This document shows, piece by piece, positions 1,009 through 3,869 of a stretch of 64,000 nucleotides of DNA. How positions within the stretch are numbered: position 1 is the first letter of the stretch; each line of letters opens with the position of its first letter. The DNA comes from a virus. Its lineage: Duplodnaviria; Heunggongvirae; Uroviricota; Caudoviricetes. The DNA lies in the IMG/VR virus record IMGVR_UViG_2713896909_000009, positions 32,673 through 96,672 of that record; one strand, 5' to 3'. A program made the translations under genes and the position numbers. A model generated the notes under the pieces. The model made no database searches, had not been told where the DNA came from, and was given only the letters and a program-made list of their open reading frames with translations.

Positions 1009-1025
1009 AGATTTATTAGAGCAAT
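1009..1025. promoter_or_regulatory. C1 repressor operator-like site
   Basis: gATTTATTAGAGCAAT matches reverse complement of P1 C1 operator consensus ATTGCTCTAATAAATTT in about 16 of 17 positions. Confidence 0.5.
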
Positions 1026-1531
1026 TCTTGCTGATGAAGAAGCGCGTTTTCATACTCCCTGACCATTAACGTAAGTACGCCGTGACTCCTGAAAACGCGC
1101 GCCACTTCAATCTTATCTTCCAGCGCGAACGCAATTTTACTTAGACCAATTTTCTTCAGGAGATCAATCTTTGCTGGACCGTCATTTCTGTCATCGGTGG
1201 CAGGACGCATAGATAGCAAAGGCTCAGCCCCGCTTGTTACGTGCTTCCGCAGCCAGGCTCGTGTTTTATCCCTTGCGATCTCACAGCGCCCGGTTACAAA
1301 CCAGACCGTGTAAACGTTAAATAACTGGCGCACCATATCAATAACTGGAGTTATAGGAGCATCGGTGTCACAGGCGAGATTAAACTCGTTCCAGTCCTTT
1401 GTTAATGCACCTTTACCTGGTGGCGGAAGCAAATGCAGTCTGTCTTCAGTTGCCTCTGATATTGTTCCATCAATATCAACTATGACGATATACGGACGTT
1501 CATGATGTGCGTGTTGGTTGAAAATACTCAA
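1016..1531 (-). CDS. HAD-superfamily phosphatase (Pnk 3-prime-phosphatase-like)
   Basis: HAD motif I IVIVDIDGTISE (DxDGT) near N-terminus; 171 aa. Confidence 0.6.
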   Translation of the reverse strand: MSIFNQHAHHERPYIVIVDIDGTISEATEDRLHLLPPPGKGALTKDWNEFNLACDTDAPITPVIDMVRQLFNVYTVWFVTGRCEIARDKTRAWLRKHVTSGAEPLLSMRPATDDRNDGPAKIDLLKKIGLSKIAFALEDKIEVARVFRSHGVLTLMVREYENALLHQQELL

Positions 1532-1603
1532 ATGCCCTCCTCATTAGACGAAAAAAATGCTGGTGGGCGCACTCCACCAGCATTAAAAGTGACACTGTAA
1601 CTA

Positions 1604-2866
1604 TCAGCGAACGTAAATAGTGCCGCCGTTCTCTTTTTCCCATGCATCGCTACGTGCATAGCAAACATCGAGAAGTCTTCTTGCCGCAGTTTCTTCTAAA
1701 CCCAATTCGACAACCAACTGCTCATGACGGCGGGTAACCACATCAAACAGGGTATGCAGCCCTTTAGTTGCCAGATCATCAATGAATTCCGGTTCGAACG
1801 GCAGCTCTGCATCTGCCAACATAACCTCTTGCGCCCACTCAACTCGACGGACCAGTTCCGGGCGGCGGCTTTCCATCTCTTTACAGATCAATTCATGGAA
1901 GAACTCTACCCAACCTTCCGGCTGGAACTCGCGGAAAATTGCCAACGGCTGGAAGTTTGGCATCAACCATTCGTTGATTCGGATATCAATGGCATAGCCC
2001 ATGTCGCAGCAGAACTGATAAGCAAAGTCCAGCTTAGAAACGATATAAGGACGCTCGTTATTGAACTCTTTAGGCGATGAGATCCCATAAGCCAGGAGGC
2101 GCGGGAAGAAGGAGATTTGCCCTAACGTCGGATGAAGTTTGCTTGCAGGGAAACGGCGCTCAGTAATGCCATACATTTCCTTCTTGAGCGTCGCAAATTT
2201 GGCATTCTCATTAACCAGCGCGGTAACCTCTGCTTTTTTATTAGCAAATGCCACGCGCGCCTCGCTTGCATCTTTAATAGTTTTTTTGAGCTGTTGGTTA
2301 AGGTCGGCGACCTGCTTACGCAGTTCCTGTCGCTCGCTTTTAGCTTTGTTATAGCGTTTCTCAAGGTTAAAAGGATCAAGTTTCATGATCTCTTTATATT
2401 GAGATTTTAGCGTTGAAATCTGAGTGTTCCGCAGCGCAAGCATCGCGGTTATCTCATTGAGTTTTGTTTCCAGCTCAATGCTTATACGTTCGGCATTATC
2501 AGCACGCTGGATGGCGTCATGCGTCGCATCGTCAATTGCGTCCTGTTGCTGGCGTTTCAAATGTTCAATTTGCAGCTGAAGCTCTTCAATTTCTTTACCC
2601 TTCAGACCGAGGTCCAGCTGCATATTTTCAGCTGCATCTACCAGGTCATTATGGCTATCAGCCTCTGCGTTATAAACATCAATAAGCTGTGCGTGAAGCA
2701 TCTCTGCTGACTGAACCGCATTATCAAAAAAACGCGCTGTGAGGTCATCACAACTAACGCGGCGTTGCGCGGCCCGGATGTTCTGGATAATGGCCGGGAT
2801 ACCGGCATTCAGGACGTCAGGGATAGATACATTTTCGATTGATTGGTTTTGTGCTGAAGTGTTCAT
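1604..2866 (-). CDS. coiled-coil protein with uncharacterised C-terminal domain
   Basis: 420-aa ORF; residues about 80-230 are heptad-rich (ELQLQIEHLKRQQQ..., KQVADLNQQLKK); C1 operator pair directly upstream. Confidence 0.6.
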   Translation of the reverse strand: MNTSAQNQSIENVSIPDVLNAGIPAIIQNIRAAQRRVSCDDLTARFFDNAVQSAEMLHAQLIDVYNAEADSHNDLVDAAENMQLDLGLKGKEIEELQLQIEHLKRQQQDAIDDATHDAIQRADNAERISIELETKLNEITAMLALRNTQISTLKSQYKEIMKLDPFNLEKRYNKAKSERQELRKQVADLNQQLKKTIKDASEARVAFANKKAEVTALVNENAKFATLKKEMYGITERRFPASKLHPTLGQISFFPRLLAYGISSPKEFNNERPYIVSKLDFAYQFCCDMGYAIDIRINEWLMPNFQPLAIFREFQPEGWVEFFHELICKEMESRRPELVRRVEWAQEVMLADAELPFEPEFIDDLATKGLHTLFDVVTRRHEQLVVELGLEETAARRLLDVCYARSDAWEKENGGTIYVR

Positions 2867-3100
2867 TTCAAAGTTCCGTATTAGCTTGTACTTCGGTCAT
2901 TTTTCCTAAGTATGAAGGAGGAAGGACTACGCAATTTGTATCCAGCCCCTCACCCAGAGCAGCCTGTAAAATTCTGGCTAAGGAGAGTCTCTTGTTGCGA
3001 TACCGGGTGATGACATGCCTGATATCGCCGGACGGCGTAACAAAGGCGATCAGCCAGTAGTGATATTTCCGTCGGAATGGCCACATAGTGCACCTTATGG

Positions 3101-3117
3101 ATTGCTCTAATAAAAAA
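3101..3117. promoter_or_regulatory. C1 operator-like site (forward)
   Basis: ATTGCTCTAATAAAAAA, about 14 of 17 to consensus; upstream of minus-strand gene starting at 2866. Confidence 0.45.
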
Positions 3118-3150
3118 CGTGATGAGTGTACATCACGTTTTAAAAATATG

Positions 3151-3167
3151 GAATTATTAGAGCAATA
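3151..3167. promoter_or_regulatory. C1 operator-like site (reverse)
   Basis: ggAATTATTAGAGCAAT; forms an inverted pair with the 3101-3117 site. Confidence 0.45.
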
Positions 3168-3869
3168 TTATTCTGATTCTTGCTCAAAAAACGCGCTAAT
3201 GAGAGGAAGCCAATCCTCTGACACTTCACGCGGTCGCGGTTTGCCGTGGAAGAAGATTATTCGGCAGTCTTTTGGTAATGTCCCATTCCCCCTGGAGTAG
3301 CGCGCACTTGCATATTTCGAACCAGGTCCCACAACATCGGCCTTGTAACTTACAAACCATCCCGGATACAGATCCTGAAATGCTGGTGTGTCATCGCCCA
3401 TAACCTTCCGTAAGAAGCCCTGATCACCCCAGCACTCAGTAGTGACACAACGAGAAATCCAACCTTCCGGATCTTGCCAGAATGAACTCCAGATATGCGC
3501 TTTTACACTATTTGGTATCCACAGTGCACCGCTACCACGATATTGTGGATGGAAAAAATCTCTAAGCATGGTGAAGCTGGTCGGTGGATTCTCAAGGATT
3601 GGGCGTATATCACCGGCAATAACCGTGTCCAAATCCAGATAGAACAGATCATCGGTTATATCCGGTCGGAACAACTCGATTTTCGCCCACCAGCCACGGC
3701 ACTTTTGCCACTGGTTGATCAATGGGACAACTTTGACGCCAGGTACATGTAAACGCTTCAGGTCTGTCAGGCAAATAATTTCATAGCCTTTTGGCAGTTG
3801 ATTAACCAGCCACTGCACATCGGAAGCGTTATAGTCACCACCAGAGCGAAGAACTAAAGCAATCTTCAT
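3168..3869 (-). CDS. putative GT-A-fold glycosyltransferase-like protein (DxD motif)
   Basis: Hydrophobic strand then acidic DxD ([12 protein letters not shown]) resembling the GT-A / GT32 sugar-binding region; 4-nt overlap with upstream phosphatase gene. Confidence 0.4.

Follow-up and report, generated by a model that had tools for sequence, protein, structure and literature searches.

The pmgR-pmgS-pap cluster of a P1-like phage-plasmid: C1 operators, a predicted domain map of PmgS and a candidate Pnk-type 3'-phosphatase

The locus described here lies near one end of a 64,000-nucleotide stretch of viral DNA (the window) and very probably corresponds to the cluster annotated as pmgR-pmgS-pap, carried by a P1-like plasmid prophage and expected to be silenced by C1 in the lysogen. 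Judged from its sequence, the window as a whole belongs to a P1/P7-like phage-plasmid. P7 and P1 DNA match positions 900-3300 at 96-97% identity, the whole of this query is spanned by all 19 of the 19 matching phage records, and the P1 and P7 annotations place pmgR/shtA, pmgS/shtB, pap, Op86a, Op86b, Op88, PpmgR and PpmgT at corresponding positions. The genes, the operators and the link to C1 are already known, being entered in the genome records of P1 and P7. The first-pass annotation had presented the locus as an unknown module of two genes, encoding a 420-aa coiled-coil protein and a HAD phosphatase. It is instead the annotated cluster of P1 (shtA-shtB-pap in P7), the first gene of which, pmgR, had been overlooked. 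A match of both proteins to well-characterised P1 genes had been named there as a refutation; both are indeed P1 proteins (98% identity to P1 for PmgS and 95% for Pap, with 93% for PmgR), yet neither is well characterised. Along the window, the features are as follows.

981-1024, minus strand: P1pmgT and P2pmgT, predicted promoters, transferred from the P1 annotation by alignment
1009-1025, minus strand: Op88 (OpmgT), C1 operator with 1 mismatch to the consensus, identical to P1 Op88
1016-1531, minus strand: pap, 171 aa, TTG start after AGGAGG, 95% identical to P1 Pap
1549-1584, minus strand: intrinsic-terminator-like hairpin from a terminator scan, 11-bp stem with 6 G-C pairs, U7
1604-2866, minus strand: pmgS (P7 shtB), open reading frame of 420 aa, 98% identical to P1 PmgS
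1628-1804, minus strand: predicted (HhH)2 / SAM-like helical domain of PmgS, residues about 355-413
1817-2170, minus strand: compact alpha/beta domain of PmgS, residues 233-350, structural relative not detected
2171-2746, minus strand: coiled-coil region of PmgS, residues 41-232, AlphaFold model
2868-3086, minus strand: pmgR (P7 shtA), open reading frame of 72 aa, 93% identical to P1 PmgR, PHROG 3177 (E 1e-44)
3101-3117, plus strand: Op86b (OpmgRb), C1 operator with 3 mismatches, identical to P1, inverted relative to Op86a
3108-3141, minus strand: hairpin between the operators, inverted repeat of 11 bp without mismatch (3114-3141) and a U-run after it, just past the pmgQ stop
3137-3165, minus strand: PpmgR, predicted sigma-70 promoter, -35 TTGCTC (3160-3165), 17-nt spacer, -10 TAAAAC (3137-3142)
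3150-3166, minus strand: Op86a (OpmgRa), C1 operator with 3 mismatches to the consensus, same bases as the P1 and P7 operators

The C1 operator consensus used, ATTGCTCTAATAAATTT, is a 17-bp asymmetric site. The window contains 10 sites of this type against 0.27 expected from shuffles, a count never reached by any shuffle, and the three at this locus can be regarded as the real C1 operators Op86a, Op86b and Op88 on the strength of their bases. An inverted pair had been proposed at 3101-3117 and 3151-3167; both members exist, the second being displaced by one base, to 3150-3166. The pair does not, as had been stated, lie directly upstream of the gene for the 420-aa protein, since pmgR, with which the unit opens, separates pmgS from the operators. 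The proposal that the module is wired to prophage induction is better founded: the sites correspond base for base to annotated P1 operators, which the P1 record links to the earlier Op86a/b and Op88 entries, and, being C1 operators, would tie the unit to induction. The wording of the P1 record is that Op86a 'controls expression of pmgR and pmgS'. Op86a and Op86b occur without change in 78 of 80 P1-like viral contigs, a scan that returned solely P1-like copies, 97-98% identical, and is useful for counting conservation, though not for the context in distant relatives. By synteny with P1, c1 falls outside the window.

The position of PpmgR was carried over from the P1 annotation through a 99%-identical alignment, with its hexamers read from the sequence, and the promoter is a prediction. 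The inverted 17-bp pair brackets the predicted promoter region: the TTGCTC of Op86a is the annotated -35 hexamer, and Op86b lies in the pmgR leader, downstream of the predicted transcription start. A promoter on the plus strand, with the TTGCTC of Op86b as its hexamer, was rejected, there being no -10-like hexamer 16-18 nt downstream. For the pmgR-pmgS unit, the P1 record gives a C1-controlled sigma-70 promoter, and a late promoter is absent from its listing. The hairpin between the operators (-13.4 kcal/mol on RNA folding, z -5.0, matched in stability by 0 of 200 shuffles) probably terminates transcription of pmgN-ppp-pmgQ, the unit upstream. The second hairpin sits within the 72-nt gap from pmgS to pap, in which no promoter-like site was found, and folds at -18.1 kcal/mol (z -3.2, again 0 of 200 shuffles); its stem and U-run are the same in P1, P7 and an E. 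albertii plasmid, and 71 of the 80 loci show no more than 1 mismatch there. Once C1 is inactivated, host RNA polymerase would be expected to transcribe pmgR together with the tightly abutting pmgS, whose ATG follows the pmgR stop after a single base (TGA-A-ATG). The hairpin and U-run past pmgS would terminate part of the transcripts, and pap, in front of which no separate promoter can be recognised, may be expressed by read-through. Like PpmgR, the read-through into pap and the roles given to the terminators are predictions.

Three points are new, if modest: the persistence of the pmgR-pmgS pair, but not of pap, in relatives whose PmgS is as little as 27% identical; the presence in Pap of the T4 Pnk 3'-phosphatase motifs without a kinase domain; and the description of PmgS, which is modelled as a long coiled coil leading into an alpha/beta domain without structural match and ending in a C-terminal (HhH)2 fold. 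The long coiled coil had already been recognised in the 420-aa protein, and the AlphaFold model agrees with it, predicting helices at residues 41-160 and 167-232, interrupted at a conserved KEIMKLDP motif. The C-terminus is modelled as a five-helix (HhH)2 fold. A search of the PDB with the PmgS sequence gave no match, and Foldseek with the C-terminal model against BFVD returned nothing at E below 0.1. Matches to CCDC93, TPR, SMC and LmuB in Pfam, NCBIfam and PADLOC were below-threshold coiled-coil hits and were treated as composition noise. Against the Pfam HhH families the window protein reaches no threshold; a match (HHH_5 / RNA_pol_A_CTD) is found in 17 of 61 relatives. The hairpins of PmgS, KGLHT and LGLEE, are without the canonical G-h-G, the family consensus being KGxG and the P1 type having LGLEE instead. 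With no match above threshold and such hairpins, DNA binding by PmgS is uncertain.

The second protein can be described more closely. As the first-pass annotation had proposed, Pap is a HAD phosphatase with a DxDGT motif, here DIDGT at residues 19-23, and it matches Pfam PF25109 (HAD_PNKP) at 45.9 bits, above the gathering cut-off of 27.6 (E 8e-12). The likeness then suggested to the T4 Pnk phosphatase domain is also borne out, profile searches giving E 3e-5 for this domain and E 9e-6 for Pnkp1 (4xrp). The DxDxT nucleophile, (S/T)GR, conserved Lys and acidic pair of Pap align with those of T4 Pnk and Pnkp1; homologues show no variation at T80, R82, R115, D117, K121, E138 or D139 and almost none at D19, D21 or T23. 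The match is limited to the phosphatase part of T4 Pnk (residues 183-292 of 301; positions 156-292 of the PHROG 505 profile). The P-loop motif GxxxxGK[ST] is absent from the Pap sequence, which gives no sign of an N-terminal 5'-kinase domain. The class B acid phosphatase family, the source of the name Pap, was rejected (PF03767 at 14.3 bits, short of its cut-off, 27; no signal peptide by eye). By its sequence, Pap is homologous to the HAD 3'-phosphatase domain of Pnk type and stands alone; judged from its motifs, it most probably works in the cytoplasm as a 3'-phosphatase, with nucleic-acid or nucleotide 3'-phosphates as substrates.

The role of PmgS is more difficult to assign. The protein matches PHROG 1660 over its full length (residues 1-420, E 6e-193), and 119 cluster representatives of the family were found. 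Database names ('PmgS-like head morphogenesis', and 'sheath contraction' in P7) point to virion assembly. We infer that PmgS has no catalytic activity and serves, probably as a dimer, as a coiled-coil adaptor in which the (HhH)2 module at the C-terminus would contact DNA or a protein partner, and that it acts with PmgR: pmgR directly precedes pmgS here and in the loci L004, L005 and L088, a pairing kept in relatives whose PmgS is 27-52% identical. Only tentatively can it be proposed that PmgS is the founder of a family of early phage proteins, uncharacterised so far, that unites the three domains described above, and that in P1-like phages it works with the small essential PmgR at the joining of packaged DNA, head and tail, or else with Pap as an accessory factor required solely in hosts that attack phage nucleic acids. 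PmgS might alternatively be genuinely morphogenetic and serve in assembly of the sheath or head, which is what the names given to it by the P1 and P7 records and by PHROG 1660 imply. Its gene immediately follows pmgR, which is required for head-tail joining (in a published deletion screen pmgR was essential and its deletion left heads and tails unjoined), and pmgR and pmgS both belong to the set of 21 genes that are best conserved among P1-like phage-plasmids. We nevertheless consider this unlikely. In published CRISPRi and deletion screens pmgS, like pap, was non-essential, and for pmgS no plaquing defect was seen, making PmgS dispensable in laboratory hosts; the virion proteome paper does not mention pmgS anywhere in its main text; the promoter given in the P1 record is of the C1-controlled sigma-70 type, not late; and distant family members adjoin early-type genes (HTH, NinH, RNase T-like), not structural genes.

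Also considered, following the first-pass annotation, was a reading in which the two genes pmgS and pap make up a single functional module, engaged for instance in nucleic-acid end repair and switched on jointly at induction. The two genes are adjacent and on the same strand, Pap resembles the 3'-phosphatase domain of T4 Pnk, the C-terminal (HhH)2 fold of PmgS is of a kind found in DNA-repair proteins, and in an hfq mutant the pmgS and pap transcripts shifted together, with pmgR shifting the opposite way. A functional pair is, however, weakened by the strong terminator-like hairpin between the genes and by the failure of pap to remain beside pmgS in more distant relatives: a 52%-identical relative has another gene between them, and in both the 27%-identical relative and the P0031 relative the annotation shows no HAD gene close to pmgS. 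It is pmgR that is conserved as the partner of pmgS, none of the open reading frames at positions 1-6000 showed an RNA ligase or kinase domain, and each gene is dispensable, all of which makes the joint module highly improbable. The third operator had likewise been counted as part of the unit; the site at 1009-1025 does exist, but the P1 annotation assigns Op88 to the next promoter downstream (PpmgT) and not to pap. Op88 overlaps both the pap stop codon, which lies inside it since Pap is 3 residues longer here, and the -35 hexamer of that promoter, its TTGCTC being the annotated -35 hexamer of the predicted P2pmgT. Bound C1 could conceivably loop from Op88 to Op86a/b, 2.1 kb away, and so help to silence pmgR-pmgS-pap, which the three operators bracket exactly. 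Looping between operators through C1 has been described for P1. This appears very unlikely for a site that P1 lists as monovalent and that covers the -35 hexamers of P1pmgT and P2pmgT, both of which read away from pap and towards the variable region; the overlap explains the position of Op88 without looping. By its identity to annotated P1 and P7 DNA, Op88 is the operator of the separate predicted promoter PpmgT, here reading into a variable cargo region.

As a discovery, the locus carries little weight, the records already holding its genes and operators and published screens having called pmgS and pap dispensable. Its remaining value is descriptive and consists of the domain map of PmgS, which is among the most conserved genes of P1-like phage-plasmids, with its conserved partner PmgR, and of the proposition that Pap is better called a stand-alone Pnk-type 3'-phosphatase than an acid phosphatase. 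The domain map and the redescription of Pap provide simple, testable hypotheses for two P1 genes without an assigned function.

In comparison with known systems, the cluster shares its gene order, its spacing, its operators (to the base) and both hairpins with pmgR-pmgS-pap of P1 (AF234172) and shtA-shtB-pap of P7 (AF503408), at a nucleotide divergence of about 3-4%. Past Op88 it departs from these, pmgT-pmgU-pmgV being replaced by an inverse-autotransporter adhesin gene, as is also the case in the E. albertii plasmid p2RM9976. With the phosphatase domains of T4 Pnk (PDB 1ltq, 5uj0) and Pnkp1 (4xrp), Pap shares the HAD family PF25109, the DxDGT, (S/T)GR and RxDxxxK motifs and an acidic pair ahead of the last helix; in contrast to these enzymes it consists of the phosphatase domain alone, without the P-loop kinase, and the similarity is remote (profile E about 1e-5 to 1e-4). 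The predicted (HhH)2 domain of PmgS has only its fold in common with the N-terminal domain of RAD51/RadA, the acidic repeats of NusA and the CTD of RNA polymerase alpha, which possess no counterpart to the coiled coil or to the unmatched domain, and relative to (HhH)2 / SAM-like modules the glycine hairpins of the P1-type sequence are degenerate.

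Megablast of positions 900-3300 against phage records matched 19 of them over the entire query at 95.6-96.8% identity (96.8% to P7 and 96.1-96.2% to P1), and the left end of the window (1-1100) found its best match, at 97.5%, in the Escherichia albertii plasmid p2RM9976 with an IncY replicon. These matches place the window within a P1-like plasmid prophage. The 420-aa ORF (1604-2866, - strand) and the 171-aa ORF (1016-1531, - strand) of the first-pass annotation are both present, and encode PmgS and Pap with 98% and 95% identity to the P1 proteins. The count of two genes proposed there overlooked pmgR, a 72-aa ORF (2868-3086, - strand; 93% identical to P1 PmgR) between the operators and pmgS, whose stop codon lies one base ahead of the pmgS start (TGA-A-ATG). 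With these identities the module is not an unknown one, as had been claimed: pmgR-pmgS-pap is a textbook P1 locus, to which the PmgS domain map and the PmgR pairing described here are modest additions.

A scan of the whole window with the C1 consensus ATTGCTCTAATAAATTT, allowing up to three mismatches, gave 10 operator-like sites where 0.27 were expected; none of the shuffles gave as many. The signals at the locus are the following.

1009-1025, - strand: C1 operator OpmgT (formerly Op88), from the consensus scan and the P1 annotation
3101-3117, + strand: C1 operator OpmgRb (formerly Op86b), from the consensus scan and the P1 annotation
3137-3142 and 3160-3165: predicted promoter PpmgR, -10 TAAAAC and -35 TTGCTC (inside Op86a), spacer 17 nt, transferred from the P1 annotation via alignment
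3150-3166, - strand: C1 operator OpmgRa (formerly Op86a), which in the P1 record 'controls expression of pmgR and pmgS'

All three operators are identical to those of P1 in the alignment with P1 and P7, and the P7 record annotates the same three; Op86a and Op86b are mismatch-free in 78 of 80 P1-like viral contigs. In outline, the proposed control by C1 holds. The coordinates first given held for two of them, the third having been placed one base off (3151-3167). Op88 had also been counted within the pmgS-pap unit; it overlaps the pap stop codon, and the P1 record assigns it to the predicted promoters P1pmgT and P2pmgT, whose -35 hexamers it covers and which both read away from pap; it is part of the next transcription unit. 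Op88 is not recognisable in two P1-like viral contigs (L033 and L044). The seven other operator-like sites lie at 5867-5883 (counterpart of P1 Op83, Oppp), 6774-6790 (counterpart of P1 Op82, O26), 17355-17371 and 17366-17382 (an overlapping inverted pair), 21911-21927, 37984-38000 and 40133-40149.

Given the transferred position of PpmgR, Op86b falls within the transcribed leader. Between Op86a and Op86b, the - strand has a perfect 11-bp inverted repeat and then a U-run (-13.4 kcal/mol, z -5.0); because it stands directly after the pmgQ stop codon, we infer that this hairpin is the terminator of the unit upstream. The gap between pmgS and pap holds a second hairpin (-18.1 kcal/mol, z -3.2), in which a stem of 11 bp, 6 of them G-C, runs into U7. 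P1, P7 and the E. albertii plasmid have the same stem and U-run, and 71 of 80 P1-like loci match the hairpin with 0-1 mismatch. Seven P1-like viral contigs (within the set L007-L086) carry other sequence there, with 8 mismatches. A search between this hairpin and pap found no promoter-like site. The most economical reading of the sequence would be that C1 controls a single unit, pmgR-pmgS, and that pap is reached by attenuated read-through. In an hfq mutant (preprint), pmgS and pap transcripts rise together and pmgR falls.

Upstream of the unit, 3168-5726 and 5890-6468 (- strand) hold pmgQ, ppp, pmgP, pmgO and pmgM of P1, a run of enzyme-like genes for which the P1 label is still 'putative morphogenetic': PHROG has pmgQ as a 'glycosyltransferase', ppp is a lambda-type Ser/Thr phosphatase, and RefSeq names the pmgM homologue a VRR-NUC domain protein. 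On the other side, P1 homology ends at 867. Downstream of Op88 and PpmgT, the place of P1 pmgT-pmgU-pmgV is taken by the first part of an inverse-autotransporter (intimin/FdeC-like) adhesin gene (2-322, - strand), which extends beyond the left end of the window; about 550 bp of AT-rich DNA (323-866, GC 0.32-0.34) come before it. This cargo is found in only 2 of 77 comparable loci, the window and p2RM9976. Since the gene lies downstream of Op88 and PpmgT, a C1-controlled promoter may read towards a virulence-type adhesin. A small ORF (664-924, - strand; MNTAFKIIMA...) begins directly after the PpmgT promoters. Its first ~19 codons are conserved in P1 and P7; in those phages this ATG is in frame with the annotated pmgT start and precedes it by 99 nt. 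SJ46 annotates a 'membrane protein' at this position. The ORF is probably a truncated remnant, because its remainder is cargo sequence. The leader between PpmgT and this ORF contains a conserved hairpin (953-985, CATGCC...GGCATG), then a T-run (+ strand), its stability just marginally above that of shuffles (z about -2).

The block from pmgT onward counts among the eight highly variable regions of P1-like phage-plasmids, and the 'extremely conserved' genes of these elements (n=21) include pmgR and pmgS (PMC9603915). A genome-wide CRISPRi screen of P1 found pmgR, pmgS and pap all non-essential, and the deletion survey tabulated in the same paper gives pmgS and pap as non-essential and pmgR as essential (PMC10695390). 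That survey saw no plaquing or anti-restriction defect in 24 of 29 knockouts; pmgS is absent from the main text of the virion proteome paper reporting it.

A Pfam scan of PmgS gave no match above threshold. A word-indexed search returned 29 relatives, nearly all in P1-like elements, including one of 27% identity with a weak HHH_5 match, and a profile run against 1.8 billion representatives gave 119 family members (83 at E <= 1e-10), most of the full-length ones being 350-470 aa. HHH_5 is matched by 17 of 61 members and RNA_pol_A_CTD by 12 of 61. The full-length AlphaFold model has helices at 41-160 and 167-232, broken at a conserved KEIMKLDP motif, and residues 226-420, modelled from 61 sequences, are predicted with confidence (pLDDT 92.4, pTM 0.86). 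For the alpha/beta domain (233-350), no convincing structural match was found in PDB or BFVD. Only G233, L338, R341, L365 and W409 are kept in at least 90% of the broad family, which argues against PmgS being an enzyme. The P1-type hairpins KGLHT and LGLEE are without the canonical glycines of the family consensus KGxG; it may be that the C-terminal module engages a partner protein rather than DNA. A PmgR homologue of 73-75 aa is encoded directly upstream of pmgS in a relative whose PmgS is 52% identical, in the one of 27% identity and in a further relative, P0031 (51%, 35% and 34% identical to the window PmgR, respectively). Among these three, only the 52% relative has a HAD_PNKP gene near pmgS, with another gene intervening. 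More distant members have an unrelated small gene upstream and lie among HTH_3, NinH and RNase T-like genes, typical of early regions.

Pap passes the Pfam HAD_PNKP cut-off (45.9 bits against 27.6); a class B acid phosphatase identity was rejected at 14.3 bits, below the cut-off of 27. A profile of ten Pap homologues matches Pnkp1 (4xrp, E 9e-6) and the T4 Pnk phosphatase domain (5uj0, 3e-5; 1ltq, 3.5e-4), and its motifs align with those of the Pnk enzymes (VDIDGT with FDVDGT, VTGR with VSGR, RxDxxxK, and ED with DD). The resemblance to T4 Pnk suggested at first reading is thus sound. The idea of a Pnk-like phosphatase was already present in database annotations, and RefSeq names the E. albertii copy '3'-phosphatase'. 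Unlike T4 Pnk, Pap has no kinase domain.
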